Source: Candidatus Bathyarchaeota archaeon
Lineage (GTDB): Archaea; Thermoproteota; Bathyarchaeia; TCS64
DNA length: 64,000 bases
Assembly: GCA_963769425.1 (NCBI GenBank)
Contig: CAVYLP010000003.1
Coordinates: 29,852-93,851, forward strand
Reading direction: 5' to 3'
The notes below the pieces were generated by a model, which was given only the letters and a program-made list of their open reading frames with translations, did not search any database and was not told where the DNA came from. The position numbers were made by a program, and so were the translations under genes. Positions within the stretch are counted from its first letter, which is position 1. Each line of letters opens with the position of its first letter. Below, piece after piece: positions 1 to 49,017 of the stretch.

Positions 1-7
1 TGAAGCA

Positions 8-1732: not shown

Positions 1733-1885
1733 GCATATAAAAATTTTTTAAATATTCTAATTTTAAATTTTAAAAACAGTTATAAAAAATATAACATCAT
1801 AAATAAAAATAAAAATATGCTTTTAAGTAGAATAATAAGAAAGTTTAAGACCCAATTCCCTAAGTAATGACTAAATGAATATATA

Positions 1886-3118
1886 ATGAAACAAATACGA
1901 ATGGCGCTAATATTAGGAAATTTTTATACCAAATCTTTTCCGAGCTGGCCACAGGTTACTGGGGTATATGGTTTAAATTTACCAAACAAAGGACACCTCG
2001 TCGACATGTTCATGCCTTATCATGCAAATGCATTTCAAAAAACACAATCTATAGCTTTGTATAAAAGCAGAATTTATTTAATTCCTTGGATGAAAACCAA
2101 TTCATACCTATTTTCTATGGTTACATTCATGATATACCAAATGAGACTTTTCTTTAGTTTATTAAAATTAAATAAGGAAAATCATTATAACATATTTCAG
2201 GTTAGAGACGAAATATTCTCAGGAATAACCGTATTATTATATAACATCTTATTAAAGAAAAAATATACATTCAACTACTCATTTCCATTTTTTGAGGGAT
2301 TAAATGAAGCATATAGGAATGGTGAAAAAGTAAATAAAATTCAGTTATTATTTTTCTATATTCAAGATATTATTTTAAAAAATTTACTATTCAAAAAAAG
2401 TACCTATATTTTTCCAATAAGTGGTGAAATGCTATCAGAACTGGTCAAAATCGGTATTCCACGAGATAAAATGTATCCGCTTACAGAAGGAATAGAACCA
2501 ACCACATTTAAAATCAATTCGAATTATAACGAACTGAAAAAAATTCTCAACATTAATGATAACGAATTTATCATTTCGTACGTCGGATCACTATCATCTT
2601 CAAGAGGCATTGAAATAATAATAGACGCCTTTGAGATGGTTTTAAAAGATAACCCCCAAACAAAATTATTATTAATTGGGTCAGGAAATGATTTCAATTA
2701 CTTAAAAAATAAGGTTGACCGTAAAAATCTTAATAATTCAATAATTTTTACCGGCCAAGTAAGTCATGATGAGGTTCCAAATTATATTTCCATATCTAAC
2801 GTTTGTTTGTCTATAATTAAACCTTTAAAGAGCTTTTTTGTTAGTTCTCCATGTAAACTTTTTGAGTATATGATACTAGGGAAACCGATAATTGCTAATA
2901 AAGAAATTCCTGAACATGAAAGAGTAATATCAGAATCAAATTGTGGCCTATTAACAGAATATAATACAAATGATATAAAAAATGCGATAAATTATTCCAT
3001 TAAAAACTATGATAATTTTAAATTACTAGGAGAAAATGGGAAAAAATGGGTTATTGAAAAAAGAACATTTTCTAAGATCTCAGAACAATTAGAAGAGATT
3101 TATTTATCGCTTTTATGA
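1886..3118 (+). CDS. Glycosyltransferase, GT1/GT4-type (410 aa)
   Basis: C-terminal motif EYMILGKPIIANKEIPEHERVISESNCGLL is typical of group-1 glycosyltransferases (E-x7-E nucleotide-sugar binding region). It sits in the glycan cluster. Confidence 0.7.
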   Translation: MKQIRMALILGNFYTKSFPSWPQVTGVYGLNLPNKGHLVDMFMPYHANAFQKTQSIALYKSRIYLIPWMKTNSYLFSMVTFMIYQMRLFFSLLKLNKENHYNIFQVRDEIFSGITVLLYNILLKKKYTFNYSFPFFEGLNEAYRNGEKVNKIQLLFFYIQDIILKNLLFKKSTYIFPISGEMLSELVKIGIPRDKMYPLTEGIEPTTFKINSNYNELKKILNINDNEFIISYVGSLSSSRGIEIIIDAFEMVLKDNPQTKLLLIGSGNDFNYLKNKVDRKNLNNSIIFTGQVSHDEVPNYISISNVCLSIIKPLKSFFVSSPCKLFEYMILGKPIIANKEIPEHERVISESNCGLLTEYNTNDIKNAINYSIKNYDNFKLLGENGKKWVIEKRTFSKISEQLEEIYLSLL

Positions 3119-3167
3119 TAACGATTGATTAAGAATTTCAATTCCGGCACATAAAGTACAATAGTGT

Positions 3168-4253
3168 TCAACTACTAATGGTTTTGAATTTGTTCTGTAA
3201 CGCTGGATCTTCCTTTATTTGAACCAAGCTTTCCGGATAATAGCTAATAAACCATACCAAGAAAGATGTCACATCAATTTTATCATTCAATAAATGATTT
3301 CTCTTGACACGCCAATCTTGTTTGACACCATTCTCAGATATCAACATTGTAGCGTATTTCAAAGCCTCAGAAGGATTCGAAAAACTATGCAAAAGATCAT
3401 ACTTTTTCTCAAGTTCCAACAGATTACCCATTGTATTCGATAGCGATGAAACGTATACCGAAGGAGTGCCCAATAAGGCGGCTTCAGTCGCCATCGAAGC
3501 CCCCTCCCCCACATAAAGCGATGCATAATACAGTAAATCATGGATATACACTGGATGAATTGTTAATTTGAATTTTTCAATATCGTTTGGCAATTGCCCT
3601 TCGGCACTCACAAAAACTTTTCCATACTTCGATAATTCTTCAATAAATGCCATTTTATCAAGAATTCCTGTTTGACGAACATCATGTGTGGCGGTCCAAG
3701 CACTGAATCGGATAATTGTGAACTTATCCTCAATCTTAAGGCTAAGCATATCAAGAACAGCTGGATTTGGTGAAAACCATCTTGGGTGAAGATAAACTAT
3801 TTTTTGATCCCCTTGATACCTGATTTGTTTTGAACCTAAATTTAGCTTATAGTTATCAGGGGTAAAAATGACGCTCGTGAAGGGTGCGTACAATCTATAC
3901 TGTTCTCTCGAGTGCTCCGTATCTTCAAAAGTAATCGATGGTTTTTTTAATAGCCAGGCTACATGTGCTGCACGAACCTATCCAAGACCGATGAAAATAT
4001 CTGGCTTAAAATCCAATGCGGCTTTATACAGTTTTAAATCCATCAAAGGCATGTTCAATAATTTCTTAGTAATAGAATCGCCGTAATTACCAAAGTTGAT
4101 ATAATTAACACCATAGCAATCCAATAACTCAAAAACAATAGGTCTACCTGACGCTATAACTAATACTTTATTACCTAATCGCTCCATTTCACGGATAAAA
4201 TATTTGAAAAAGTGAACATGAGCAGGATGATTAATATCCGTAATGATATTCAA
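3168..4253 (-). pseudogene. DUF354-like protein (a predicted glycosyltransferase/epimerase-like family) interrupted by an in-frame TAG
   Basis: ORFs 3978..4253 and 3168..3893 are in the same frame on the minus strand. Translation reads ...IFIGLG * VRAAHVAWLLKKPSITFEDTEHSREQYRL-YAPF... through a TAG at 3978-3980. The C-terminal ORF starts at TTG. Confidence 0.55.
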
Positions 4254-4299
4254 TACACTCTAATATTATAGAATTGTTTTCTAAATATCAATTGAATGG

Positions 4300-5295
4300 T
4301 TATATTTGAGCCTCGATTCCCTTATACTTCAATTGCAAAATATTTTTAAAACAATCGAAAATTGGTTTTCTAATAAATTTATAATATTTTCCATAATTTA
4401 CCAAATTTCCACCAAATCTTCTCTTAAACTCACGGGGCCCGTAAGGCCTTTGAGGATTTCCCGCCCCTCCAAAGTCAAAAAATTTATATCCATTTTTACT
4501 GCCAATTTCTAAACCTAACCATACCATTAATTCATTTGAATATTCAGAAACGTCATTATACAAAGATCCAGCATACCAATCATACATTACATCCTTATAG
4601 GTCAGAAATATTCTTGTAACTATAGGCTCATCATTTTTATATCCAATTTTTCCTATTATTTGTCCCTTAAGATACTTAAAAGCATTGATAAAAACTATCT
4701 TGTTTGGATTAGGCATATTTACTCTTTTATAAGTATTACAAATAAGACGATACGATTCATCGATATTTTTTTGAGTTTTAATATCGGAAATCACGATATT
4801 TTTACTTAATGCTTTTTTAATATTTTTTCTTCTATTTTTAGGAATTGAATCCCATGTTATTTTTGAATCTAGATTTAGTGGTATTTCATAATTCAAGTGA
4901 TCCTCATAATAATAACTTATTTTTGAAAGAGCATTTTTAATGCTGCTTGTATCCCACATATTTTTAATATCTATCATAGAAGAAGGTATAATTTTTGGAT
5001 TTAATTCATCGATGTAGGATAATAGCATCGACGCATACATCGATTCATCGATAATTGGTCCCCCCTGAAAAGATAATCTTGAAAATAAATTATAATAATT
5101 TGTTAAATTCCCAACCATTAACCCCTTTATATTGTTATTATTTAATATAGTCAAACCCACTGATTTATTATAATTATCAATATTATTTACTTTATAATAC
5201 TCAGGCGTTTGAAATATATTGCCAAATTTATTAGTTAAAACATACTCTTTCCATTGTTTTTCATTAACTTTATCTATATTCATAATTTGTAGCAT
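4300..5295 (-). CDS. FemAB-like acyltransferase (FemABX / DUF482-like GNAT-fold family)
   Basis: C-terminal FDFGGAGNPQRPYGPREFKRRFGG motif characteristic of the FemAB family. 331 aa. Confidence 0.6.
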   Translation of the reverse strand: MLQIMNIDKVNEKQWKEYVLTNKFGNIFQTPEYYKVNNIDNYNKSVGLTILNNNNIKGLMVGNLTNYYNLFSRLSFQGGPIIDESMYASMLLSYIDELNPKIIPSSMIDIKNMWDTSSIKNALSKISYYYEDHLNYEIPLNLDSKITWDSIPKNRRKNIKKALSKNIVISDIKTQKNIDESYRLICNTYKRVNMPNPNKIVFINAFKYLKGQIIGKIGYKNDEPIVTRIFLTYKDVMYDWYAGSLYNDVSEYSNELMVWLGLEIGSKNGYKFFDFGGAGNPQRPYGPREFKRRFGGNLVNYGKYYKFIRKPIFDCFKNILQLKYKGIEAQI

Positions 5296-5298
5296 AAG

Positions 5299-6063
5299 TT
5301 ACCCTCCTCTAAAAATACGTATAGCCAATTTACCCGAGTTAAACAAATTATCTAAACACCAACTTATTACAAATTCAGAATAATTCGTTGCCCATCTTTC
5401 AGGGTGAATATTTAAATATAATTTAGAAAAGGACTTTGTGGAAATTACTTTTATTAAATCATTTGTATTTCTTATTTTAATCGAATTTATATCAGTTTTA
5501 ATGTAGTCCCTTAAATTGTTTTTATTATCCCAGCTACGTCCAGCATCCGTATAATAATCTATATCAGAAATAGATAGACTACCATCGCCAAGCAAATTAA
5601 AATCTTCAAACTTTACATTTTCCCAAATAGAGCTGCTCACATATCTCGACAAGGGCCGCCCATGCATGCTAATCGTATTAACATAGCATATTTTTCTAAA
5701 TTCTTCGAGCTCTTTCTTAAAAACATTAATGGCTTCAAATTGGTCACCATTTGTCTTGCAGAGCGTCTCATAATGATAGCCAATCTCATGCCCCATAACC
5801 GAAATTGATCGAATAATATCCTTATCAAAAACTCCAGAAGAATATCTAAAATAATATGTCGCTGAAATTCCTAAATTGTATTCCAGTTCAGCCATTTTTA
5901 AGGCATTCTTGGGCTTTCGGTCAACATCATGTCTTAAAATTATAAATCCATCCACCGGATGAGATTTTAAATATTCTTCTACGGTAATGAATCTATATCT
6001 AGAAATAATATTACACAGTTCTTTATACTTAGCTAATGTAAAATCAAGAGTCATATAGCTCAC
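5299..6063 (-). CDS. Polysaccharide deacetylase-like protein (carbohydrate esterase 4 superfamily-like)
   Basis: RHDVDRKP motif and His-rich metal-site residues (HEIGYHYE). It is separated by only 3 nt from the upstream FemAB-like gene. Confidence 0.5.
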   Translation of the reverse strand: MSYMTLDFTLAKYKELCNIISRYRFITVEEYLKSHPVDGFIILRHDVDRKPKNALKMAELEYNLGISATYYFRYSSGVFDKDIIRSISVMGHEIGYHYETLCKTNGDQFEAINVFKKELEEFRKICYVNTISMHGRPLSRYVSSSIWENVKFEDFNLLGDGSLSISDIDYYTDAGRSWDNKNNLRDYIKTDINSIKIRNTNDLIKVISTKSFSKLYLNIHPERWATNYSEFVISWCLDNLFNSGKLAIRIFRGG

Positions 6064-6204
6064 ATCGTAATGAATTAACGATCATAATTCTATTATTAAA
6101 TAGTATGCAATTTATTAAGAGTACGTTTCGCCGTTATTACAATGATTGCCAACCTAAATAAGAAAACAGTATTACTTTGAAGAACTCGTGCTAACTAATG
6201 AGTA

Positions 6205-7203
6205 TTAAAAAAATCGCCTTTTAAGGAGCCTCAAATACACTGACTCTGCGAATTTACCCCGTATATTCTGTTTCCTAACGGTATAAAAAGCGGTAAGTTT
6301 CGGTCCAAATTTTGATTTATATGTGGCAATTCCTTCTTTGTTAGCGCCTACAAAATCTATTTTTAGGATGCCTTCCTGCTTACATTTTTTTATGTTTTCC
6401 CAAGTGAGCAACTCATTTACAGGTATTTTTCCTTCAGGTCTTACGCTTCCAAGCCAATCCATGTAAGTATCATTGTGCCATAGAACAACTTCAGATCCGA
6501 CTATATCCTCGCCATTTTTTACTAAGTGGATGCATATATTATCTGGAAATAGTGCCCTAAGTTCGTTTAAATAATCTTTACTATATAATGGAATTGTTAA
6601 TCCTTGTTCAATATATCTCTTTGAAATCATACCAAATACAAGATCACTTTTATCAGTTTCAACTATTTTTATATTCAATTCTTCCGCTTTTCTTATTTTA
6701 GAACGTTTCTTAATATTAATACCCTTCCAAATTGTATCTATATCGGAAGATAAGTCTAGGATATATGTATAGTTAACATTCACATCATATCCACCCCAAA
6801 TTAACTGTCTAGTATCAATAATATCAGGCATGAACGAAATAAATATGTAATCGGGGTTTAATTGTTCTAATGTTTTAGAGAAATCATCATAAATAATCTT
6901 GAGATATTCTTCCTGTTTCTCTTGGTTAAAATCATAAAATGTGTCTTTAAGGGCATATCCAAGATAGGGTATACTAGCTCTCGGCGGTGGTGAGAATAAC
7001 ATCTTAACGGAATATTGTTGTTTATAGAAAACAGGGAATAAGCAAAACAGTTCATCGGTCTTAAAAAAACCGTAGGTTAACAAATCGAATCCAGAGTATT
7101 TAGCCGTTGTTTTAAGAAAATCCCAACGATGAAATATTGTTGAGTGACTGCAATCCTTAATGAATTTATCCCAGACCTGCGGGTCATCAATTATTTTTAT
7201 CAA
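6205..7203 (-). CDS. FemAB-like acyltransferase, paralog of 4300..5295
   Basis: C-terminal ...GILKIDFVGANKEGIATYKSKFGPKL resembles the FemAB signature. Size is similar (332 aa). Confidence 0.55.
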   Translation of the reverse strand: MIKIIDDPQVWDKFIKDCSHSTIFHRWDFLKTTAKYSGFDLLTYGFFKTDELFCLFPVFYKQQYSVKMLFSPPPRASIPYLGYALKDTFYDFNQEKQEEYLKIIYDDFSKTLEQLNPDYIFISFMPDIIDTRQLIWGGYDVNVNYTYILDLSSDIDTIWKGINIKKRSKIRKAEELNIKIVETDKSDLVFGMISKRYIEQGLTIPLYSKDYLNELRALFPDNICIHLVKNGEDIVGSEVVLWHNDTYMDWLGSVRPEGKIPVNELLTWENIKKCKQEGILKIDFVGANKEGIATYKSKFGPKLTAFYTVRKQNIRGKFAESVYLRLLKRRFF

Positions 7204-7291
7204 AAGGCCAGTCCTCGGACTCTATCTAACAGCTCAAAGATAAATTGATTATTATTAACCATATATATTATTCTTAACTTAATTATGTACA

Positions 7292-8332
7292 ATGAATTAC
7301 GACATATTGAAATCAAGTGATAAAATTTGGGACATCTACACGGTAAAAAATGATTATCAAATTAATGAAACTAATAATAATTTAAAACGCAACTCTGAAA
7401 TAATAAAAAATCCTCTGGCCTCAGAATATCTATTTAAAAATGAAAAGGTGCCCGAATATCCAAATGGGGAGGGATTTGCTTTATGTCTTACACACGACGT
7501 CGATGAAATTTACTTTCCATGGAGCCATTTACTACAAGCCATAATTTATTACGCCAAAAAAATGAATACGCATGGAATAATAAATTCCTTCCATTGGAAA
7601 TTTCGTAAAAAAGAGAGTCCATATCTAGATTTTAAAAAGATACTCGATCTTGAGAAAACATACAATGTTAGATCCACATTCTTTTTCCTAGCAACTGAAA
7701 AAGATCCCATCAGATTTCGATATGTCATTGAAGACGCAACGGAAATCATCAAAGATATTCAATCAGAAGGATTCGAAATAGGACTTCACGGTGGATACTA
7801 TGCTTACAATAATCTTGAGGACATCATTCAACAAAAAATTAGACTCGAAAGAGTTTCTAACAGCCAAGTAATTGGTTACAGGAATCATTATCTAAATTTT
7901 AACGTCCCTCAGACATGGTATTATCTGACAAAAGCGGGATTTACATATGATTCAACCATCGGATACAACACAAATAACGGATTCAGAAATGGCATGTGCC
8001 ACCCATACAAACCATATGATCGGAATATTAATAATTATATAAATATTATTGAAATTCCCCCAATTATCATGGACTCTGCATTTCCAAAAGGCACACTAGT
8101 AACTAATTGGTGGGAATTAAAGAAGATGTTAAAAGTTGTCGAGAAAAATCACGGGGTTCTCACCGTTAATTTCCACAACGAAGTGTTTCACGCCCCCTAC
8201 AAAGCAGACTTCATGAAGCTGTACGTGCATCTCCTGGAGGAAGGGAGAAGAAGAAAGGCTTGGATGACAAATGCCTCCGAGATACATGACTGGTGGAGAA
8301 AAAAATATATCGAGGAAGATATTATCACATAA
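7292..8332 (+). CDS. Polysaccharide deacetylase-like protein, paralog of 5299..6063
   Basis: LTHDVDE motif near the N-terminus and GLHGGYY His motif. 346 aa. Confidence 0.5.
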   Translation: MNYDILKSSDKIWDIYTVKNDYQINETNNNLKRNSEIIKNPLASEYLFKNEKVPEYPNGEGFALCLTHDVDEIYFPWSHLLQAIIYYAKKMNTHGIINSFHWKFRKKESPYLDFKKILDLEKTYNVRSTFFFLATEKDPIRFRYVIEDATEIIKDIQSEGFEIGLHGGYYAYNNLEDIIQQKIRLERVSNSQVIGYRNHYLNFNVPQTWYYLTKAGFTYDSTIGYNTNNGFRNGMCHPYKPYDRNINNYINIIEIPPIIMDSAFPKGTLVTNWWELKKMLKVVEKNHGVLTVNFHNEVFHAPYKADFMKLYVHLLEEGRRRKAWMTNASEIHDWWRKKYIEEDIIT

Positions 8333-13992: not shown

Positions 13993-14936
13993 TTAGCCCA
14001 CCAGGACTCTCTGCCTTGTCTTCGAAGATCTCAGAGCCTCCTCACAGAGGGTAAGTGCACGAAGACCGTCTTCCCCGGTTATCTCAGGAGATAAACCGTT
14101 GGCGACGTGGTCTATGAATGAGCGAAGTTCCTCCTGAAGAGGTTCTTTATATGGTAAAAAGGGCTGTACAATCATTTCGTTATTTTCGATGGTGATCTGC
14201 TGGGTAGTGTACTCGACGTTGATTATTCCTTCTGTTCCGGTTACTGTGAGTGTCCTGATTCTTCTTGGGGTAAGCCAGTTTGTTTCGATAAATGCACTCC
14301 GGTCTCTATCATAGAAAAGATTGATGTTAGCATAATCTTCATACTTATGCCTGATACACCCTGCTACGGCTGAAACATACTGTGGCTCCCCTATGAGAAT
14401 GTGATTAATAATATCAATATCGTGGATGGCAAGGTCTTTCACAACACCAACGTCACCAATCCGATCTGGACTTCGACTTACTCTACGGGAGTGAGCAAGT
14501 ATTACATCTCCAATTTCGCCATTGGAACTTCTCTATACACCTCTTGGACTGCGGGATTGAATCGTTCTACGAAGCCAACCGTTAGAAAGACCCCAGCTTT
14601 GTGGGCCTTATCGATCAGGTTTTTCGCCTCTTCAATTGTATTCGTCATCGGTTTCTCGACAAGAACATGCTTACCATTTTCAATGGCTTGTAGGGCGAGA
14701 TCGTGGTGTGTTATAGTTGGTGTACAAATATCGACGACTTGTATGTTAGGGTCGTGGAATATTATTTTTGGATCGGTGTAGTATGGTACATGGTAAAGTT
14801 CACCGATCTCTCTAGCGGTAGGTTCATGAGCATCCGATATTGCCACAAGTTTGGCTCCGGGTAGGCTCCTGTAAACGCGAGCGTGGTTTCGACCCCAGCT
14901 CCCACATCCTATTACTGCGGCATTAATCGTCGACAT
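13993..14936 (-). pseudogene. Gfo/Idh/MocA-family NAD(P)-dependent sugar oxidoreductase, split by a frameshift
   Basis: ORF 14502..14936 carries the Rossmann N-terminus (AAVIGCGSWGRNHARVY...EKP). ORF 13993..14442 carries the C-terminal domain. They are in different frames and joined near 14445-14505. Confidence 0.6.
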
Positions 14937-16740: not shown

Positions 16741-17033
16741 TAGTTACTTCGACCAGTTTAATAATAGTTTATGCCTTCTTGTTTCTGTTTGTTTTTTATG
16801 TAGAAAAGGTAGTGAAGAGGAAAGTAACAATGAGAACGAAAGTGCTATTGGGTTTCGGCGCACGCAATTCATAAATGGCTCAAATTAATTGGAAATTCAT
16901 AACAGTTTCTACAATCATTATCACTTATTAAAAAGAGTGTTTCGGGAATAAATTCTTATAAATGAGGATGAAAATCGCACCCTTTTCAAGGATGTATATT
17001 AATAGCTAAAAAAATAACTTTTATTGTTACAAA

Positions 17034-17311
17034 ATGGCATTCGATCCACTTGAATTGGTTATTATCGTCGTAGCAGTTGCACTTCTTTTCTAGGGCCCAA
17101 GCAGATCCCCGAACTAGCGAGAGCACTCGGAAGAGCAAGAGGTGAGTACAGTAAAGCCAGCAAGGAAATAGATAACGAGGAGAAGCCTAAATCACGAAAG
17201 GAGACCCCCGAAGACCCGTTAACAACTGTGGCCCTAAGCCTAGGAATAAGCGTGGAAGGAAAGTCAAAGGACCAGATTGCTAAGGAGATAATTGATAAAA
17301 AATCTTTCTAA
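17034..17311 (+). pseudogene. Second TatA-like gene (tatA paralog) disrupted by a 1-nt frame change at a G-run
   Basis: Frame 0 gives MAFDPLELVIIVVAVALLF then TAG (17091-17093). The +2 frame from 17093 gives GPKQIPELARALGRARGEYSKASKEIDNEE...KKSF*. Joined, they match TatA (…LIWGPNKIPELARALGRAKNEYSKA). The break falls where TatA1 has Trp (TGG). Confidence 0.6.
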
Positions 17312-18334: not shown

Positions 18335-18631
18335 TTAGAGGTTGGTCTTCTTCGCAACAATCGCGTCGGCGATCTCATCCCGCGTCTTCCCGACTGTTTC
18401 GATGCCGAGTTGCTGCGCCACCTCAATGATTTTATCGGGTGCCGGAGCACTCTTAGGAGCCTCCTTCATGGCCTCCTGCGTGAAGACCTCTACCTCACTC
18501 GCGGCCTTAGAATATTCATTCTTCGCGCGTCCGAGCGCCCTGGCTAATTCAGGGATCTTGTTAGGTCCCCAGATCAGGAATATCATGATGGCTCCGACAA
18601 TTACAACCAGTTCAAGTGGATCTAACGCCAT
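18335..18631 (-). CDS. tatA: Twin-arginine translocase subunit TatA (98 aa)
   Basis: MALDPLELVVIVGAIMIFLIWGPNKIPELARALGRAKNEYSKA. N-terminal TM segment plus amphipathic helix. Confidence 0.85.
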   Translation of the reverse strand: MALDPLELVVIVGAIMIFLIWGPNKIPELARALGRAKNEYSKAASEVEVFTQEAMKEAPKSAPAPDKIIEVAQQLGIETVGKTRDEIADAIVAKKTNL

Positions 18632-18670
18632 TTTCCATCGATTCAGCGAAGGGAAGCTTTCTTAATATAC

Positions 18671-20319: not shown

Positions 20320-21516
20320 TCATCGCTCAACGAGCCTAGGTTCACTAAGGGCGATAGGTCTTCCCTTCTCAAAATACACCCTTGGTAACAGTGGATGCAA
20401 CCCAACCATGAGGGAATACGTCATAATTCCGGCTAGTTCAGCCACGTTATGCGCGTTATTCACACCACCACGCCCTATGGCTTCTACTACCCCACCCACG
20501 TCGACGTCTGTCCCATCAAGATCGACTAGGAAGTGATTGACAGATACCGTCCCTAGTACATGTTTGATCCTCCCATCCACCATGACTAGGCCTTTCTTCG
20601 TCAAGCCCCTCGGGTAGCCGTCGGAGTACCCGATATGAACTGTCCCCACCTTCATCCTCTTAGAAGCCGTGAATCTCCTAGAATAGGTGAGGGACTCTCC
20701 AGACTCAACCCACTTGACCTGTTCGACTCGAGCTTTGAGGGAAATTGCCAACTTTAGGTCCAAACCGCTCTCCCGATCCTCAGGGTCGGGATAGAACCCG
20801 TAGAGCATTAAGCCCGGCCGAACAGCGTCCAAAAACGTGAAGGGTCTGTGGAAGACCGCGTTTCCACTTGCCATGCTGCGGACCCCATACCTAATCCCCA
20901 ATCGATCCAACTCTGCGCTGACATCCTTCATTCTATCAACCTGAATCCGATCAAGTTCCGCATCCTCCGACATGGTCGAGAAAATACCGGTTATCTCAAG
21001 GTGCGTAAGAGACGAAATATACTGAACGAGATCAACGGCTTCGCTCCACCTTACACCAACTCTACCGAGTCCTGTGTCGATCTTAACCCGAGTCTCAGCC
21101 TTCTTCCCGACTTTTTGGGCTGCGGATTCTAGTCTCTCCGCCGTTTTCTTCTGGTAAATCGTCTGCGTGATTTCTTTTGTGACAACCAATTCATAATGCT
21201 CATCTGAGAAGAGGGGATCCATGCTGATCACACCACAATCAAGGTGAGAGTCCCTGATCTGCTCGGCCTCCCAAAGCTTTGCTACGAGGTACTGCTTGAT
21301 GCCCATCCTCATCATATGCGCAACTACTGGTACCAACCCATGGCCGTAGGCATTCGTTTTAACACAGGGGATCACTTCGACTTGGACCTTTTTCTTAACT
21401 TCTTCAAGGTTGTATGTGATAGCGTCGAGGTCGATCTCGAGCCAAGAGGGAAAGCCCTGGATACGTTTCTCTATCTCTTCAGAGGAAAGCTGCCTAGCGA
21501 AATAGGCTTCAGCCAA
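20320..21516 (-). CDS. alr: Alanine racemase (PLP-dependent)
   Basis: VKTNAYGHG pyridoxal-phosphate attachment motif near the N-terminus. Length and C-terminal beta-domain are consistent. Confidence 0.8.
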   Translation of the reverse strand: MAEAYFARQLSSEEIEKRIQGFPSWLEIDLDAITYNLEEVKKKVQVEVIPCVKTNAYGHGLVPVVAHMMRMGIKQYLVAKLWEAEQIRDSHLDCGVISMDPLFSDEHYELVVTKEITQTIYQKKTAERLESAAQKVGKKAETRVKIDTGLGRVGVRWSEAVDLVQYISSLTHLEITGIFSTMSEDAELDRIQVDRMKDVSAELDRLGIRYGVRSMASGNAVFHRPFTFLDAVRPGLMLYGFYPDPEDRESGLDLKLAISLKARVEQVKWVESGESLTYSRRFTASKRMKVGTVHIGYSDGYPRGLTKKGLVMVDGRIKHVLGTVSVNHFLVDLDGTDVDVGGVVEAIGRGGVNNAHNVAELAGIMTYSLMVGLHPLLPRVYFEKGRPIALSEPRLVER

Positions 21517-21825
21517 GTGACATCGACGGATTAACTGGCTCTAATCCTATTAAATAGGTTTGGCGAATTAACACAATTTACCCAGAAAAGCCATGACAAC
21601 ATGGACTTGCAAATCCCTGACCAGAACCAAACACTCACTATGACCTTCACAACGCTAGGGGGCTATCACTTATTGTAGCGTTCACACAAGGCCCTTGTAG
21701 ATAGGATATAAGGGTCATGGCAAGGCGTAGAAATAAGCTAGAATTGACTTAGATTTAAGAAATTTCTCCTAACTATAAATACGATTCTTCCTTTTATAAA
21801 AACGGAGAACCGTGAGGTAGTAAAA

Positions 21826-22218
21826 ATGTCCGCTCCGATCCCTCCGTCAGCTATAGACTGGGGTAAGGTCTTCGAGATATTTCTCGTACTTGGAGCGATC
21901 GCCTTGACGGTGGTCATGGGATCAATGCTCTACATGCTTGTAAAATACAGATTTAGGGGAGGGGAGTGGACAGAGAGACCGATTGACCCATCTCACGAAA
22001 ACACTACCCGTTGGAGGGAAGCGATAATCTTCGCCTCAATATCATTCCTTGTACTCTTTGGATTAGCCATAGTCTCATACAGGGCAGTAGTATACATCCA
22101 GAATCCGCCGATCGCCACTAATTCCTACGAGATAAAGGTCACGGCGTTTCAATGGGACTTCAGGTTTACCTATCCTAACGGATACTCAACGGTTGGGGTA
22201 TGCAATGTCCCAGCTAAT
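21826..22218 (+). pseudogene. Haem-copper oxidase subunit II (CoxII-like) N-terminal fragment, truncated by IS insertion
   Basis: Two TM helices, KYR, HENT and YEIKVTAFQWDFRFTYPNG (the conserved QWxWxFxYP region of CoxII). The annotated ORF 21826..22302 reads on into the IS terminal repeat that begins at 22219. No CuA-site region follows. Confidence 0.6.
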
Positions 22219-23492
22219 GCGCGCTGCCTTGTCCCGAAATTAACGGCCAAACACCAATCCCTCGAGCAAGGAGACATAAAATCAACTCACAAAAACCACT
22301 AAGCCACATCAACCCCTCCGAAGCCCACAAAACACCCACAACAGACTACACCCCCAGAACCCCAAACCCACTACCCACTAGCCACCCCCACCAGAAACCC
22401 CTCAGACGAGACCCTCACACGTTGAAGAACGTAGGCGAAACAGCCTTCTCAGGCCGACCCAGACACTCAGCCGCCTCACGAACCAGCACGACACAGAGCA
22501 GGCTCAGCAACGCATACACCGAAACGCATCCCAGCCTCCTCACATTGTTCACGGTCAAACCGTACTGGGTCTTCAGCCAGCTGAACACCGACTCCACCAG
22601 CGGACGCTTATGGTACTCGGCCACGAGCCCAGGTGGACCGTGAGTCCTGAACCTACGATCAACCCTCAGAATCCCCTCACCTCTCTGGTTAGCAGTATAC
22701 GGAATCACCGAATCAGAGACGAGACCCCTCACCGCCGAGCTACTGTACTGGCTGTCCGCCACCAGGCTCCTCACCAACCCGCCGGCCCTAACCAGCACCG
22801 CCCTGGCCTTCTCAACCAAGCCTGGAGCGTGCTTCTTCTCGTTGTCGTTAGCGGGAGCCAGCAGAGTGGCTAAGGGAAGCATCGTTTTGTGGTCCACCGC
22901 GACGTGGAGTTTGTAGCCGAGGTCGTAGCCCCTGCCGTTCCTGCCCACTAGGGCGTCTGGGTCAGAGTACGCGACCCTGCTGTTATCCGGGTGCCTGATG
23001 CTCCGTGCCTTGATGAAGCTCGCATCCAGGAGCACATCGACCTCAGGGGCTCTGAATCTGAGGAGTTTGACCACCTTCTCCTCGAGGATGAGCTGGAGGA
23101 CGTCGGATCCGACCCGCTTCGTGAATCTGCTGATGACGGATCTGGGGTAGCCTCTCTGTTTCCCGTATATGAGGCAGAGCCGTCTGAGTCGCCGGTCGAC
23201 GTCGAGGATCCGGGTGAGCTCGCGGAGGCTTCGGATGCCTTTCAGCCTCATTATGAGGAGGGCTCTTAGGATTCCGAGTGGGTTTCTGGGTGGTCTGCCG
23301 GCTCCGGTTGTGTGGTAGCAGCCGATGAGTTGTTTTTGGGCAATGCTTAAGTCGACGTTTCTGAAGAGTGTTTCAAGGGTCTCGTGTTCGTCCTGTCCTA
23401 ACGGACTCGACCTCCTCTGGTTCCCGCCATGGGTGACGAGACCCTAACTTTCAAGATAAACTTGTCTCGAATTTAGGGACAAGGCAGCGCGC
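22219..23492 (-). mobile_element. IS4/IS5-family insertion sequence (about 1.27 kb) with 22-bp imperfect terminal inverted repeats
   Basis: Left end gcgcgctgccttgtcccgaaat (22219-22240). The reverse complement of the right end atttagggacaaggcagcgcgc (23471-23492) is gcgcgctgccttgtccctaaat, matching 20 of 22 positions. The DDE transposase ORF lies inside. A CA-rich 3' segment (22300-22400) resembles copy 2 at 46000-46100. Confidence 0.7.
22415..23251 (-). CDS. DDE transposase, IS4/IS5 family (278 aa from ATG; the frame stays open about 190 nt further upstream without a start codon)
   Basis: Segments DASFIKA, HVAVD, VADSQYSS and ESVFSWLK (DDE, with the E in the xxxFxWxK-like region). Confidence 0.7.
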   Translation of the reverse strand: MRLKGIRSLRELTRILDVDRRLRRLCLIYGKQRGYPRSVISRFTKRVGSDVLQLILEEKVVKLLRFRAPEVDVLLDASFIKARSIRHPDNSRVAYSDPDALVGRNGRGYDLGYKLHVAVDHKTMLPLATLLAPANDNEKKHAPGLVEKARAVLVRAGGLVRSLVADSQYSSSAVRGLVSDSVIPYTANQRGEGILRVDRRFRTHGPPGLVAEYHKRPLVESVFSWLKTQYGLTVNNVRRLGCVSVYALLSLLCVVLVREAAECLGRPEKAVSPTFFNV

Positions 23493-23997
23493 GATAAGAC
23501 TATGGCCCCAAACCCAAATTAGATCTTGATTTCTGCTAGATTTTTATTCTTTGAAAGAAAAAACTAAATATTTCTTAAAGTATGTGAAAGATGTGTATAG
23601 ATATGCGCGCGCAGTTAAATTTAATATTTATAAACTCTGGTGCAAAATCGATCTATTGCACCAATAAGTGGCGAAAAATAAATGACGAAAGAGACGTTCG
23701 AAATAGGTGAGACCGAAAAACACCTTATAATAGTTGACGCGAGCATATTTTGGAAACATATAACCATCGAAATAGATGGGAAAACAATGGTTAATGAGTA
23801 CAGTTATTCACCGATGCCGAAGAAATTCCAGTTCGACGTGGGAACTTCCGAAAAGCATCAGTGGAAATCAGCGCCGGGGGCTTCTCACCCATCAAAGTCG
23901 TTGTAGATGGCAAAGAGGCTCAAAAAACCTGAACATGCACCGCAGTAATTCGTTAGACATGATCAACATAGAAAGCTAGCGAGAAAACTCGGAAATC

Positions 23998-25260
23998 TTA
24001 CTGGGCCCGCGTCTCCATAACAGGCGGGACGCGATACTCGCCGTTCAGGATGGCCGGGCCGGGCTGGTAGACGCGCAGCCAGAGTATGAATTTGCCTGCA
24101 GGCGCGGGCAACCAGTTGGATTCATGGCCTGCCGGAGCGGCGTTCTGAATATAAATGTCGACGGAGCCGTCGGCGTTTGGCACGAGTCCCGACCGGTCGC
24201 TCACGCTGTACCGGTTGATTGGATTCGGCACAAAGCGATTGTGGTCATCACCCATAGTCAGCGACCAGAATGCATTGTTCGGCGGGAGTTGTCCTGCCGG
24301 GAAGTGCATGATGTAGTCGTGCTCTCCGGAGAGCGGATGACCCGCGCCATCTGCGTCCGTCGTCCAGTACATCGCCTCCTCCGGTACGTTTACCGGGCCA
24401 GGAAATATCTGGGCGCATGCGGCTCTGAACAGAAAGCCGATTGCCAGGCTCGCCGCATCCGAAAATGGTGGTCCAGCCGTTGACCTTCGTGACATAGATC
24501 CTCGCAATAATCGGGAGCGTGACAAACGCCAGCCCGAAGCCGAGGAGGATGCCTTGTATCACGTCATTACGCACAGTTCTTGAATTGGGATTTAAGATGA
24601 ACGAATTGATGATGAAAAAGACGAATACCACGCCGATGAGTACCGTCAGAATAGCGTATGTTCTGCTGCTCATATTGATCCCTCCTGGTTTAGCGGTGTG
24701 AGCCGTATCTGCTTTGCAAGATGATGGGCGGTCGGCAGGTCGCTGTCGCTCTCCACGAGCACTCGGCCGATGACGAGCACCGAGTTGTTCGGCGAGGATA
24801 TCTGTTTCATGCCGCTCGGCACCTGTCCTTTCCAGTTCGGCCCCGTGATGAGGTAGTCGCCGGCTTCGGTTCCCGTGGTACGTTTGCCGACGTAGGCGAA
24901 AACTGTGTTGTTCGACGGGTCGGTGAACTGCACGCTGTAGTAGCGGCCGTTCATGTCCGGGACGTGCAGGACTTGCGGCCCTTTTCTGAGGTCAAGCCAG
25001 CCGACCGTAGAGCGTGTCGCGGTTCACGCCGTAGTCACCAGGTTTGAGGCCGAGGCGGGCGGGTGGAGGGGGTCTGCAAAGAGTGTTTGGGGCTCCGTAT
25101 AGAGCGTATTGACCGGGATGGGGCCTTCGCCGAACCCTTTAACGAGGATCGCTCTCTTGTACACGTACAGAATTATGCGTGGCCAATTGTAGATGAAAAG
25201 GAACCATGTCACGACCATGATCGAACCGAAAATTAATAGATCTTCGAGTTCCCACATCAT
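23998..25260 (-). pseudogene. DUF1254/DUF1214-family protein gene broken into at least 4 ORF fragments
   Basis: Fragments 25024..25260, 24670..24954 (DUF1254-like: YSVQFTDPSNNTVFAYVG...LITGPNWKG), 24248..24673 and 23998..24525 (DUF1214-like: NNAFWSLTMGD...YRVPP) lie in different frames of one strand. Confidence 0.5.
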
Positions 25261-25813
25261 GGATTCATCTTACATGATTGTTTATACAGTTTGCCATGAT
25301 CTCATCTTTGATGAGGAGGTTGTATTGAAAAATGCCAACAAACTTTCAACGAAAATTATTGCGCGGTTGTGGGTAAATGTTGGTTGTCTTTATGAGTAAA
25401 ATCGCGTCTCGCGCACGCCCCGCTACCATTAGCTAACCCCTCAATCTCAGAGAGAGTACTCAAAGCGTTACGGAGTATCAGGATCCTTAACAAGAACTCT
25501 CAGTTGACATATGCCAAGCATCTCAGAAGGCTGGCTAAAGGAGTAAACCTTGATTCTTCCGAGAGGTTTGCACTAATCTTTCATCTGAGCAAACATGGGC
25601 TAAGACCCGATGAAATCAGTAAGATAAAACTCAGTTTTTAATGGGGATAGAGGTGAGCTTTCGGTTAGAACATCAAAGCTTGGTCTTGAATGGACGCTGA
25701 GATTGAAAAGAGAATCTAGCGATTTATTTAGAGATCAACTTGCCTTGATCCAGATGCATTTCTTCTTTGAATTAGTTATTGGGTTAGAGGTTTTTGCGAC
25801 AGCGTGGCACTGT

Positions 25814-27331
25814 TTAATTTCCGATTATTCCATCAATCGCTTCCTCGAGATCGCCCGCGGCCTTCTCTAGTTTTCTCCTCTTCTCCATGATGTATACTGA
25901 GTCTTCCTCGATCTTTCTCTGGCTGAGGCCAATCTCTTCTAGGACTCTCACTGGGGCAGGACCACCGATGAGTGTTCGTCGATACACCATCTTCCGTGGA
26001 TCCATAGCCTCCTGAATGATTTGGGTCGATAGCCCCAGATTCCTTCCATAGTCGGGATACATCGTTGCAGCTTCGTCAAGATTCTCCTCCGTGACCTGGC
26101 TGGGTTTCACTCCACGTTCGACACCTACCCTGACAAGTGTCGCGACTATCTGATGGGCGGTCCTCCACGATAATCCCTTCTCGCGCACAACGGCTGCGGC
26201 GAGGTCAGACGCCCCCGCCCAGTGGGCACCAGCTAACTCTTCAGCGCGGGAGGAATCTATCTTCAGGGTGCTTAAAATTCCAGGGATCATTCTCAGCCCA
26301 TTGTTGATGTCGGTCCAGGATCTGTGCATCCCATCGACGGAGTCTGCTCCCAGCATCCTTGACTTGACGTTGACTGTCAGGTCAGCTAAGAATCTGAGGG
26401 CCGTGGGATTTCTCTTCTGCGGCATTATGCTGCTTGTTCCGCAGTACCTGTCGGCTGGGTCGACAAGTCCGAACTCGTTCGAGCTAAAGATGAGCATGTC
26501 GTAGAACAGACCGCTGATAACGTGGCTCAGAGTGAGGAGGACGGCGAAGCTGTCCAGTGTGTACCACTCGTGTTTCTCGGCGTCGTAGCAGTTCCTGTAC
26601 AGCGCGTCGAAGCCTAGGAGGTCCATGGTGCGATGTCGGTCGAATCCAGGGATGTCGGTTCCCGTGCCAATCGCCGAGCCCGCGGGGCTGATCTGGGACA
26701 GATCGTAGGCGGCCTCAAGTTTTCTCTGCTCCCTTTCGAGCTGATTGAGGAAGGCCATCGCGTAGAACCCGAGCGTCATAGGCTGAGCATGCTGGAGGAT
26801 GTAGCTTGAGCCATAGACTGTCAGCCCTGGAGAGTACATCGGCCAGATGGTTTCCACGTGTTTCTCCGCAAAGTCAGCTAAGGCCATCCTAACGGTGGTG
26901 AGCAACTCCATGGCTTCGAGGATGTATTCGCGCTGTGTGATGTGTTGGCTCACCGTGGCGAGGTCTCCAGTACTTCTCCCGATGTGGATTCGACCTCCGA
27001 CCTCCCAGCCAAGCTTCTCAATCAGGTAGGATTCACCCGAGTGGTCAACTCCGCCAACTCTGACGCGTTCCGCCAAAACACCCTCCGCCTCCATCTCCCT
27101 GAAGGCTCTGAGGATCGCCGCTCCGTCGCCCTTCGGAATTATGCCCTGTTCGGTGAGCATAACGGTGTGGGCCTTGTCGAACATGTGGTAGGCGAGGTAG
27201 GGTGGGGTCTTCTCCCACCCCTTTTCCGCTCTCTGGAACTCAGGCGCCATCGGCTCTGTGAGGCGGCCGACTCCGGGCCTCATCGCGAACCATAGGTGAC
27301 CTCTGTACCTGTACTCCTCTTTCTTCTCCAA
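25814..27331 (-). CDS. argH: Argininosuccinate lyase
   Basis: Fumarate-lyase signature GTSSIMPQKRNP. Overall layout matches ArgH. Confidence 0.85.
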   Translation of the reverse strand: MEKKEEYRYRGHLWFAMRPGVGRLTEPMAPEFQRAEKGWEKTPPYLAYHMFDKAHTVMLTEQGIIPKGDGAAILRAFREMEAEGVLAERVRVGGVDHSGESYLIEKLGWEVGGRIHIGRSTGDLATVSQHITQREYILEAMELLTTVRMALADFAEKHVETIWPMYSPGLTVYGSSYILQHAQPMTLGFYAMAFLNQLEREQRKLEAAYDLSQISPAGSAIGTGTDIPGFDRHRTMDLLGFDALYRNCYDAEKHEWYTLDSFAVLLTLSHVISGLFYDMLIFSSNEFGLVDPADRYCGTSSIMPQKRNPTALRFLADLTVNVKSRMLGADSVDGMHRSWTDINNGLRMIPGILSTLKIDSSRAEELAGAHWAGASDLAAAVVREKGLSWRTAHQIVATLVRVGVERGVKPSQVTEENLDEAATMYPDYGRNLGLSTQIIQEAMDPRKMVYRRTLIGGPAPVRVLEEIGLSQRKIEEDSVYIMEKRRKLEKAAGDLEEAIDGIIGN

Positions 27332-27455
27332 GTTTATCGATGATAGAGCTACTGTGCGCCTACATAGTACCTATCATTGGCCGAGGAGATCGACAGTTGT
27401 GCATGGAGAGTTATGTAAGAAATGATGCGAGTGCGCAACTCATGTGACTAAAGAT

Positions 27456-29219
27456 TTAGTCCAGGTTCAGCTGGGCGAGCCAAGTTGCCTCACCCAGAGC
27501 GTCTGAAACCCGGTTAGCCTCACGGACAAGCTTCGTCTTCAAGGCTTTGAAGCTGCTAGTATCGGGGTTTAACTTCACAAGTTCGGAGAGCGGATGCAGC
27601 ACAGGTATTGGCTTGATGTATTCGGCGCCATAATGGTCCTGCCCGTATGGTCCGCTGAGGGTGTAGTTGATTGGGTTGATGACTCTGCAGATCTTCAACA
27701 TCGTAGCGTTTGTTGATTTTGCTCTCGTCTCATCATCCTCGTGAGAATTTTCGGAGGCCCTGTTTAGTTCCTCTGTTCTTAAGTCGAACGTGACTGCAGC
27801 CTCCTTGAAGCCCTTGGCTTTCTCACTTAGCCCTGAGAGGTCTAGTGCGTCGCCTGAGATCTTCTCGAGCTCATCGAGGGCTGTGAGTGTCCAGTCCGCA
27901 ACTGGGGTAAATCTGTATGGCAGTAATGGCAGAGTGCAGAGCCTCAGAATGACAAGGAGGTGAGCCTTGTTAGCCATGTAGAGGGTCTCAGGGTCGCATT
28001 TCTCGATGGTGTCGTATTCGCTGTGGTACCACCAACCACCAGGTTTCTGCTCCTCTCCGTTAGGTGTCACAGTCAAGACCCTTGTGGATGGCACCCCGAC
28101 CCCGAGGTAGGACTGGTCACCGGCTTTCCACGGTGTGTAGCCAGCGATTCTCCTGTAATCAGCTCCCTCGTATTCGGCTAGATCCTTGATCGTCTGGTCC
28201 ATGAAGTCGTGGCAAACGGGGTCCGAGTCGACGGTGTATACCGTTGTCCCAATCATGCACGGCGTATCGTCGTTTAGGTATGCGACACAGTGTTGCTTCA
28301 CTCTATCCCAGTTGTTGTCCAGGTAGTATGTTGATCCAGTCATGATGCCGGTCTCGTGCCCCTGGAAGAAGAGGAACTCCGCTCCTCTTCTCATCGGTTT
28401 AAGACTTGATAGAACCCTCGCGACTTCGAGAGTGCACGCGACCCCGACGGCGTTGCAGCTACCAGCCGCGGCCCAGGCATCCATGTGGCTGCCGAGTAGG
28501 ACATAGTCCTCCTCCTCCCCCTGAATAGATGCCGTGGGCTGTCTTGTTCTAGCCCAGCCCCTTTCATTGCGGCCACGCATAAAGACCCTCACGGGCCCGC
28601 TCTGAAGGAGCTGCTTGAGCTCGTTTCCATCCTCATAGTTGATGAGAAAGGCTGGGATTCTCCCGATCTCGTCGATGTTCTCCGGGGTAGGGTTACCCCA
28701 CACGGACTTGACTGTGCCCCTGTTTAAGACCCTGCGGGGGGCATGGTAACTGATGACGATCAGACCTGCAGCACCCTTCAACACGCCCGCTACGTAGTTC
28801 TTCCAGGGCCTAGCTGGTCCGAGTTCGAACTCTGCCAGAACAATCTTGTCCTTGACGTTCTTATCTTTGTAGTCTTCGAGGCCGCCTCCGGCGACGTAGA
28901 CTAATTCTCCCTCGACCCCTTCTGAACCGGTGGAAGCCATCTGTGCGAGAGGCATCGCATCTATGGACCTCTTTTTTGGCGCCGTGACTCGGAGTTCGGC
29001 TTCAGTAAGCTTGGGGAAGTCGAGCCAGCTCTGATACTCAACTGCTTTCGCCTGAACATGGTACCCTTTCAGGACGTTCAGTACGTATTCGACGGCTCTC
29101 TCGTTTTCCGGAGTTCCCGAAAGCTTCTGTCCTGATTCCGCGAACCATTTGGTGTGTTCCCAGCTCTTCTCCCTTGAGACTCGGTTAAGTGCCTCCTTTT
29201 CATAGTCCGTTAGAACCAT
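27456..29219 (-). CDS. M28-family metallopeptidase-like protein with a PA/TfR-like apical region (587 aa)
   Basis: LLGSHMDAW, DDTPCM and EFLFFQGHETG segments are compatible with an M28 dinuclear zinc site. No signal peptide was recognised. The call is tentative. Confidence 0.4.
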   Translation of the reverse strand: MVLTDYEKEALNRVSREKSWEHTKWFAESGQKLSGTPENERAVEYVLNVLKGYHVQAKAVEYQSWLDFPKLTEAELRVTAPKKRSIDAMPLAQMASTGSEGVEGELVYVAGGGLEDYKDKNVKDKIVLAEFELGPARPWKNYVAGVLKGAAGLIVISYHAPRRVLNRGTVKSVWGNPTPENIDEIGRIPAFLINYEDGNELKQLLQSGPVRVFMRGRNERGWARTRQPTASIQGEEEDYVLLGSHMDAWAAAGSCNAVGVACTLEVARVLSSLKPMRRGAEFLFFQGHETGIMTGSTYYLDNNWDRVKQHCVAYLNDDTPCMIGTTVYTVDSDPVCHDFMDQTIKDLAEYEGADYRRIAGYTPWKAGDQSYLGVGVPSTRVLTVTPNGEEQKPGGWWYHSEYDTIEKCDPETLYMANKAHLLVILRLCTLPLLPYRFTPVADWTLTALDELEKISGDALDLSGLSEKAKGFKEAAVTFDLRTEELNRASENSHEDDETRAKSTNATMLKICRVINPINYTLSGPYGQDHYGAEYIKPIPVLHPLSELVKLNPDTSSFKALKTKLVREANRVSDALGEATWLAQLNLD

Positions 29220-29529
29220 ATGTGGAGATTCGTAGTCTGCGGATATTTCAGTTGCGCGCGAATGACTCTCTTATTTTTAATAAAAGTGTCAAGTCAGACT
29301 CGCAAGTGAAAACGTTAGTATGGGGCTTCCCCCCGCTACTTTTAATAAATTTATGAATATTATCCAGTTCAACTACACATTCAGAACTCGAATATGCAGA
29401 AGAGGAGAAAAATCTCGCATCCTGTCGCGCACGCGTAAGGATTATGGGGTTGCGTATATTATGTGCTGGTCATCCTCGCACGCTTGCCGTCTCATACACT
29501 TTTTAAAATTCAATTCTCAATACAGAATC

Positions 29530-29844
29530 ATGAATGCCGAAGCATTTGACGATGAGGGATTTCTAATCAACGCCAATCTATGGACCAAAGAACTATCAAA
29601 GAGTATGGCTAAGACCCAATTCGACATAACCCTCACCGACCAACAGACAAAGATCATCCTTTACATCAGAGACTACTACAAAAAATGGGAGACACTACCA
29701 ATGCTTAAAACAATCAGAGACGAATTCGACCTAACCACATCAGAGATAGATGAACAATTCAAGAGAGGCAGCAGCACAGCGAGGGGAGTAATATGCAAAC
29801 TCGCCGGGTTACCAAAGATGCTATGCATAGCCTCAGGATGCTGA
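29530..29844 (+). CDS. TusE/DsrC-family sulfur-relay protein (about 105 aa from the internal Met; annotated ORF 29320..29844)
   Basis: C-terminal ...KLAGLPKMLCIASGC is close to the DsrC/TusE tail (…AGLPKPTGC…) with a penultimate-arm Cys. The internal LTDQQTKIILYIRDYYKKWETLP is DsrC-like. Confidence 0.55.
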   Translation: MNAEAFDDEGFLINANLWTKELSKSMAKTQFDITLTDQQTKIILYIRDYYKKWETLPMLKTIRDEFDLTTSEIDEQFKRGSSTARGVICKLAGLPKMLCIASGC

Positions 29845-29851
29845 GCGAACA

Positions 29852-30205
29852 ATGAGCGAAGAGCTATTGCTGGTATACGGCTGGGGACCGGAGGAGGATG
29901 GAAAACTCTCATCCCTCCTCTACATAGCAGAGACGGGGATATCGATGGGCATGAATACCTCGATCTTTCTCTTCACAGAAGCGGCGATCCTCGCCAAACA
30001 GGGTAACATCCAGAAGGTAAGCGTGGAAATGGACTCCAGGTTCAGACGAATCACAAACGACCCCAGGCTCAGGGTATATGTGTGCGAAGAGGCGGCAAGG
30101 AAGCGTGGGTTAACACGTGATAACATCGAGGAAAAAATCAGCCTTATTGGGTACGCCACCTTCCTTGACATAGCTACAAAAACTAAGACTGTGATAACAA
30201 TTTAG
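29852..30205 (+). CDS. DsrE/DsrF/TusD-like protein (117 aa)
   Basis: Conserved YVCEEAARKRGL Cys motif. Size matches. It starts 8 nt after the TusE-like gene. Confidence 0.55.
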   Translation: MSEELLLVYGWGPEEDGKLSSLLYIAETGISMGMNTSIFLFTEAAILAKQGNIQKVSVEMDSRFRRITNDPRLRVYVCEEAARKRGLTRDNIEEKISLIGYATFLDIATKTKTVITI

Positions 30206-30219
30206 GGGATAGATAAACG

Positions 30220-30612
30220 ATGATTGTGAAAAAGGTGAAGGAAGTCAAGGACTTCGACGTCAAGGAGGCGTATGGGCAGGATGCTGAGGGAGTATCGATC
30301 AGGTGGATCTCTGAGAAACGCACGGGCGGGGATGAGTATCTGCACAACTTCGCACTCAGATACTTCACCTTCAAGCCTAATGCCTACATGAATCCTCATA
30401 AGCATCCGTGGGAGCAGGAGATCGCCGTCACGAAGGGAAGGATTCAGGTTTTAGGAGCTGCCAATGTTCAGATTCTGAATGAGGGAGATGTAGGATATTT
30501 CCCGGCGAATGAGGTGCATGGTTTCAAGAATCTCTCTAATGGAGATAGCGAGTTCTATTGTGTGATTGGGTGTGTTGGGAAGGGTGAAAACTGTCTGGGC
30601 ATACAGGGCTAA
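30220..30612 (+). CDS. Cupin-domain protein (130 aa)
   Basis: PHKHPWEQEIAVTKG and EVHGFKN form the two cupin His/Glu motifs. Confidence 0.6.
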   Translation: MIVKKVKEVKDFDVKEAYGQDAEGVSIRWISEKRTGGDEYLHNFALRYFTFKPNAYMNPHKHPWEQEIAVTKGRIQVLGAANVQILNEGDVGYFPANEVHGFKNLSNGDSEFYCVIGCVGKGENCLGIQG

Positions 30613-30779
30613 AAAACATTATAGTTGGCTAATTAATTGAATCTCTTCATTCATTACCTACTTATTTGACTTGATTATGTTCTTGATGCCGAAGTATTGT
30701 AAATGAAAAAAAGATAGCGATTCTTAACCTAGCATCTTAACTAAAAGGATTTAATAGAGAAGGGTTAAAATCGGGCTCC

Positions 30780-46748: not shown

Positions 46749-46781
46749 GCAAATTACGAGCACAAAGCGCACGTGTTATTG

Positions 46782-49017
<2,236 letters not shown>

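Follow-up and report, generated by a model that had tools for sequence, protein, structure and literature searches.

The Bathyarchaeia are mostly anaerobes. Cytochrome c oxidases have been reported for just one genus among them, Houtuousia from grassland soil, and resemble those of Sulfolobus (Hou et al., 2023; PMC10321748). This statement was repeated in a 2025 review (PMC12694404), and the oxidases have been read as an adaptation to (micro)oxic soil (PMC10321748, PMC12694404). The closest described respiratory systems are the SoxM-type oxidase of the Sulfolobales, with SoxH as subunit II, SoxM as a fusion of subunits I and III and the sulfocyanin SoxE, and the bacterial CoxB, and no description of insertion sequences (IS) of Bathyarchaeia was found in the searchable literature. 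Here we analyzed a stretch of 64,000 nucleotides from contig CAVYLP010000003.1 of Candidatus Bathyarchaeota archaeon, called the window in the following, in which a coxII gene and an IS meet. The coding sequence breaks off after codon 131, precisely at one terminus of the IS, and the DNA next to the other IS end has a counterpart in a 95%-identical relative that already bears an IS end at the very same nucleotide. We think it likely that an IS came to lie at the coxII break in a SoxM-like haem-copper oxidase operon and that this was followed by a later exchange between IS ends.

The coxII fragment is of the CoxB/SoxH type and occupies positions 21826-22218 on the plus strand; its 131 codons, which are free of stops and frameshifts, encode a membrane anchor of two helices together with the first beta-strands, and no CuA site. 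The open reading frame (ORF) extends from 21826 to 22302 and thus runs into the left IS repeat at 22219, as the preliminary description of this DNA had stated, and the CoxII homology detected by tblastn ends exactly at 22218. Over residues 1-131 the fragment is 87% identical (E 5.9e-73) to the intact protein P0001 (223 aa, PF00116), and all seven database relatives of the ORF, which are 158-225 aa long, carry PF00116. The match of the fragment to the CoxB model TIGR02866 is partial (profile positions 11-123 of 202, E 5.4e-12) and includes the membrane anchor; the intact P0001 passes this model with 159.6 versus 147.7 bits. The SoxA-type quinol oxidase model is matched weakly (25 bits versus 110). 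The CuA motif of P0001, CYELCGSGHTFM, follows the pattern C-x-E-x-C-x3-H-x2-M, and the CuA domain of this protein (residues ~127-216), which aligns to solved subunit II structures, lies essentially completely beyond the break. The cupredoxin domain with the CuA ligands is present in the orthologues P0001 and P0137. Its absence downstream of the right repeat had been noted before, and using tblastn we found no CuA/cupredoxin part of coxII after 23492 nor anywhere else in the 64 kb. Because the whole CuA-binding domain lies beyond the break, the predicted product should be unable to bind CuA and to act as a functional subunit II, and judged from its sequence the gene is a truncated pseudogene of the CoxB family. 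A statement based on a metagenome-assembled genome (MAG) that this organism “has coxII” would be wrong here, since the annotated ORF of 158 aa is a truncated coxII fused to an IS end.

A comparison with related loci indicates what the region looks like when the gene is intact. The locus L001 from a soil-type metagenome of JGI shows 86-93% DNA identity to positions 21504-22218 of the window and reads CCAGCTAAT/CAAAATG at the break point (the slash marks the position of the break), with an intact coxII directly followed by coxI. L006, with alanine racemase on the minus strand followed by coxII and coxI, matches the left side of the window. The operon is only partly covered in these two loci, which extend over 1 kb (L001) and 4.3 kb (L006). 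The full operon is found in L002, L003 and L004 and consists of coxII, a coxI/III fusion (710-761 aa), a CoxIV-like gene, a gene for a SoxE/blue-copper protein and a UbiA-type haem O synthase gene; in L003 and L004 TatC and TatA are encoded upstream of coxII, as in the window. Because the alanine racemase gene and the upstream intergenic region are syntenic with L001 and L006, and TatC/TatA with L003 and L004, the sequence comparison identifies the coxII fragment as the orthologous gene in its normal place and not as a stray paralogue, a possibility that the preliminary description had left to be checked. The missing 3' part of coxII and coxI, for which it had suggested a search elsewhere, did not turn up in a tblastn search of the 64 kb, and with queries from L001-L006 there was also no tblastn match to coxI/III, coxIV, soxE or ubiA in the window at E<=1e-3. 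With these operon partners, relatives of the window coxII resemble the SoxM-type oxidase of the Sulfolobales and bacterial CoxB, whereas the window keeps the membrane-anchor half only and contains neither the CuA domain nor the partner subunits within 64 kb. A metagenome scan with P0001 returned only two distant loci. The related contig L092 terminates where the beginning of coxII is expected, 164 bp upstream of the start of the alanine racemase gene, and L088 and L089 have a lyase gene in common with the window and show no synteny. In comparison to L001 the window also contains an extra segment of ~110 bp (21590-21707) in the alanine racemase-coxII intergenic region; it carries the small palindrome ACAAGGCCCTTGT, lacks IS ends and does not fold significantly (z = -1.0).

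The element at the break (22219-23492, 1,274 bp) is bounded by inverted repeats and encodes its transposase on the minus strand. The left repeat at 22219-22241 (GCGCGCTGCCTTGTCCCGAAATT) lies on the transposase 3' side and abuts coxII codon 131, and the right repeat at 23470-23492 (AATTTAGGGACAAGGCAGCGCGC) lies on the 5' side. Both are 23-nt repeats of the form GCGCGCTGCCTTGTCCC(G/T)AAATT and are complementary at 22 of 23 positions. Each IS end carries one copy of the 17-nt core GCGCGCTGCCTTGTCCC with no mismatches, and these two are the only ones in the window; the chance expectation is 0.08 even if three mismatches are allowed. The transposase frame (22415-23443, minus strand) is open over 342 codons and contains DDE_Tnp_1 (PF01609; E 8.3e-17, 62 bits versus a cut-off of 23, profile positions 5-200 of 200) and, N-terminal to it, DUF772 (E 1e-9), both above the Pfam cut-offs. 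D140, D230 and E284, which we take to be the catalytic triad of the IS4/IS5 DDE superfamily, and the series Y277-R280-E284-K291 do not vary among the 14 family members that were aligned; the window copy is one of them and has the signature Y-2-R-3-E-6-K plus D-D-E. With inverted repeats, an open frame, both Pfam domains and the invariant catalytic residues, the element can be classified from its sequence as a structurally complete IS of the IS4/IS5 DDE superfamily.

The start of the transposase is less conventional. The first canonical start is the ATG at 23251, giving 278 aa, and the frame upstream of it is conserved at the protein level, yet without an in-frame ATG, GTG or TTG. The invariant N-terminal region QDEHETLE... 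(23380-23443, minus strand) lacks such an upstream start codon in most long-type copies, including those of the window, L007, L008, L010, L011, L009, L013 and L063. Third-codon-position variation speaks for translation of this region, and just upstream of it there is a conserved out-of-frame CCATGG together with an AGGAGGT(G/C) motif. This suggests a programmed frameshift or a non-canonical start of the long-type transposase.

In many respects the element resembles IS5/IS1182-type elements with DDE_Tnp_1 and DUF772, as it shares the single transposase gene, the size of ~1.1-1.3 kb, the short inverted repeats, both domains above cut-offs, the D-D-E triad and Y-2-R-3-E-6-K. It differs from them in its scores against the named NCBIfam families (IS5, IS1182, IS4, IS982 and ISNCY were compared), which are all below the curated cut-offs (IS1182, 87.8 versus 270 bits; IS5_4, 70.3 versus 140; IS5_3, 43.3 versus 110). 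The best full-length profile alignment is to transpos_IS5_4 (positions 5-279 of 285). A tblastn search of 72,556 plasmids and a phmmer search of the PDB with the transposase gave no match, which further separates the element from this type. The same holds for the near-confinement of its family to MAGs of Bathyarchaeia, the lack of a consistent target duplication and the fact that most long-type copies have no canonical start codon in frame ahead of the conserved N-terminus. Judged by these profiles and searches it appears to be a previously unnamed, IS5/IS1182-like IS.

A genome scan with the transposase revealed 149 encoded relatives, of which 79 loci were kept. Nearly all relatives are located in MAGs of Bathyarchaeia/Bathyarchaeota from Danish soils (MFD), SPRUCE peat, palsa and similar sources, and the family contigs binned outside Bathyarchaeia are few and short. 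The best transposase match is L007 (87% identical), and at the nucleotide level the window IS is 73-79% identical along its entire length to the elements of L007, L008 and L010, with no sharp switch in similarity. The family falls into two size classes of ~1.10 kb and ~1.27-1.33 kb. The core GCGCGCTG[GC]CTTGTCCC bounds the elements in more than 50 loci, and as it stands at both ends of these elements in other genomes, the earlier proposal that the terminal repeats define an IS family holds. Across 54 complete elements, which were compared for a target-site duplication or consensus, we found no consistent duplication; a flank match of at least 2 bp was present in 12 of the 54, and the first flanking dinucleotide is biased toward TA (21%) and GC (17%). 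Transposase-less short elements of ~390-550 bp with the same GCGCGCTGCCTTGTCCC ends occur as well (L073, 10269-10660; L088, 1626-2171), and these are probably non-autonomous derivatives of the family, similar to miniature inverted-repeat transposable elements (MITE-like). The family is abundant in Bathyarchaeia and, with its conserved ends, is a useful marker and annotation target.

The left junction is supported by a second assembly. In the protein collection the window coxII ORF corresponds to P0135 on a contig of 383,910 bp. P0136, encoded on a contig of 1,024,914 bp and compared as protein sequence, is identical over CoxII residues 1-131 and continues with Ala-Arg, the residues encoded in the window by GCGCGC, the first six bases of the IS end, followed by AQIVIGTG and a stop. 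The alanine racemase of this contig is 98% identical to that of the window. From this comparison, the coxII breakpoint is real and shared by two assemblies, so that P0136 provides independent support for the left junction.

The right junction tells a different story. The flank at 23493-23681 is unrelated to coxII and follows the IS end as GCGCGC/GATAAGAC. The locus L090 (ENA ERZ25039477, contig_100026) aligns at 94.8% to positions 23470-30621 of the window, and its identity starts at the inner edge of the right repeat, which is identical at 23 of 23 positions, so that the junction GCGCGC/GATAAGAC is common to both. The IS of L090, which is present without its 5' end and second repeat, is only 77% identical to the window IS in the transposase region and is oppositely oriented, with the transposase 3' end at the shared flank, where the window IS has its 5' end. 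Beyond the L090 IS follow genes for an abhydrolase, a TP_methylase, a riboflavin-kinase-type protein and RtcB, none of which is present in the window. Since in L090 a different element in reverse orientation ends at exactly this nucleotide, the right junction is an older IS junction and did not arise from the insertion into coxII. The preliminary description had proposed a check for target-site duplications, and at the window copy there is none: the left flank ends in GCTAAT/, the right flank begins with /GATAAGAC (/GATAAG), and the intact site reads CTAAT/CAAAATG.

A single simple insertion is therefore rejected, as the element lacks a target duplication, its right flank is not part of coxII and L090 has the same right junction. 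Accordingly, the earlier view that the IS destroyed coxII is correct in so far as a real IS is present and the gene is cut at its end, but a single insertion cannot explain the missing 3' half. Recombination within the bodies of two IS copies, by deletion or inversion, was rejected as well, since it would keep the orientation of the IS at the right flank, in which L090 and the window differ. Instead, we propose that a member of the family inserted into coxII and that the 5'-end repeat of this IS was exchanged with the identical 23-bp 3'-end repeat of a second, resident family member, either by host recombination within the inverted repeats or by a transposase acting on the ends of two copies. 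An exchange at the ends would fit the even similarity of the window IS to its relatives along its length. With the ends in inverted orientation, an inversion would have moved the 3' part of coxII, coxI/III, coxIV and the genes for haem O synthase and the blue-copper protein to another place; with direct ends, a deletion would have removed them. Under both variants the oxidase operon is broken at the window locus. The genes beyond the L090 element resemble housekeeping genes, which would speak for an inversion rather than a deletion.

Several points weigh against the proposed exchange of IS ends. P0136 continues differently after the breakpoint, which the exchange does not explain, and its tail AQIVIGTG is absent from six-frame translations of the window and of all loci compared. 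The reciprocal junction, with the 3' part of coxII beside another IS end, was not seen within the 64 kb examined, and both an inversion and a deletion would fit. Furthermore, the model takes L090 as the pre-rearrangement state of the right-hand site, and a repeat of 23 bp is short for homologous recombination. Finally, the missing duplication is weak evidence by itself because the family as a whole shows no consistent one (12 of 54).

Two IS copies, one in coxII and one at the GATAAGAC site, could also have been wrongly joined during assembly, the left flank of one to the right flank of the other across the repeat, in which case coxII would still be interrupted and its 3' half and the rest of the operon would follow undamaged directly after the true copy. 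Such a chimera would leave the same signature as a real IS-IS recombination, namely two unrelated junctions and no target duplication; moreover, the source is a metagenome assembly in which several 1-nt frameshifts relative to related loci suggest long-read consensus errors, and the related contig L092 breaks close to this locus, upstream of the alanine racemase gene. We nevertheless consider a chimera unlikely, as contigs as long as that of the window (383,910 bp) over a 1.3-kb repeat usually result from spanning reads, and as the L090 IS belongs to a different lineage (77%) in opposite orientation. A full-length identical copy would have to be an additional unseen one, and the 23 bp shared with an L090-type copy in the required orientation are not long enough to cause a false join in an assembly.

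DDE elements of the IS4/IS5 type are commonly viewed as cut-and-paste transposons, which argues against a one-step event in which an IS resident at the GATAAGAC site moved into coxII by intramolecular replicative transposition with an adjacent deletion or inversion. A single step of this kind would give one ancestral and one new junction without a target duplication or a prior second copy, and the element, with all predicted catalytic residues in place, could have been active. However, the site in L090 holds a different, oppositely oriented member of the family (77%), and the window IS is not the orthologue of this resident copy, which makes the one-step event improbable in our view. That the fragment is an old, decayed duplicate, with an intact coxII operon elsewhere in the genome and no functional loss, draws on the fact that 64 kb of the genome were examined and that a truncation common to two assemblies is not very recent, but it is very improbable given the orthologous position (alanine racemase and intergenic region as in L001/L006, TatC/TatA as in L003/L004) and 131 undamaged codons with 87% identity to an intact homologue.

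A second element of the window had been described as a degraded copy of the same IS. Its perfect 19-nt inverted repeats and the internal deletion are indeed present (45917-46748, minus strand, 832 bp), but it is a different IS and not a copy. The repeats at 45917-45935 and 46730-46748 (GCGCTAGCCTGTTTAGAAA) are unlike the ends of the IS in coxII, no nucleotide similarity to the element at 22219-23492 was detected, and its transposase fragments (DUF772, 46461-46691; DDE_Tnp_1, 46244-46456) are only 30-39% identical to the first family at the amino acid level. A common origin as copies was therefore rejected, and these comparisons make it an IS of its own within the same superfamily, with an internal deletion. 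The element lies 34 bp from the stop codon of katG, which encodes a catalase-peroxidase. In three genomes of Bathyarchaeia katG is found within a few kb of IS elements (window, 46748-48999; L050, 9322-11512; L066, 12220-12996), with a DNA identity of 80-87% among the three loci, and in the window a gene for a Fur-family regulator adjoins katG (49038-49472).

Some further features of the window deserve mention. Four genes are split by 1-nt frameshifts in comparison to their relatives, namely GFO_IDH_MocA (13993-14936), an ORF of 74 aa (23682-23930), DUF1254/DUF1214 (23998-24954) and katG (46782-48999, with the frameshift near 48750); either the genes have become pseudogenes or the shifts stem from errors in the long-read consensus. 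L090 shares some of the DUF1254/1214 breaks with the window. Positions 1-8000 are very AT-rich (21-33% GC versus 45-63% in the right half of the window) and encode glycosyltransferases, FemAB/GNAT-like proteins and a polysaccharide deacetylase, which gives this part the appearance of a gene island for surface glycans with an atypical base composition. On either side of tatC, at 17031-17074 and 18591-18634, lie the arms of a 44-nt inverted repeat (84%), which correspond to two oppositely oriented TatA-like genes, and an ORF of 499 aa (54874-56373) contains internal direct repeats of ~250 bp with 64-74% identity and thus encodes a repeat-domain protein.

Concerning the host, the relatives of the alanine racemase (80-81%) and of the lyase (64-65%) are labelled Bathyarchaeia/Bathyarchaeota, and L091 (GCA_017883585.1) is 84-94% identical to the window over 8.6 kb. 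The window fits an oxidase-bearing, Houtuousia-like lineage. In its widest form, our interpretation would be that the only aerobic respiratory operon of a Houtuousia-like soil Bathyarchaeon was broken up by a 23-bp end exchange between two Bathyarchaeia-specific IS members, and that at least three variants of the coxII breakpoint segregate among close relatives; as a whole, we regard this as doubtful. If true, oxygen respiration would currently be undergoing natural loss or reshuffling in a lineage regarded as only recently adapted to oxic soil. A strain with a broken operon and the same breakpoint in two assemblies would show that the trait is not fixed and that mobile elements reshape the respiratory capacity of the population.

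The disruption and rearrangement of operons by IS elements is well known and routine, and what is new here is an unnamed element of a known kind. The case gains a little from the fact that the oxidase operon of a soil Bathyarchaeon was hit, and from the structural variants at one breakpoint. Compared with described inversions and deletions between IS copies, the window locus is alike in carrying two unrelated junctions on one IS, in the lack of a target duplication and in the loss of adjacent genes from this locus. It differs in its presumed partner, which, as deduced from L090, is diverged (77%) and oppositely oriented, so that the exchange would have to lie in or at the 23-bp repeats.

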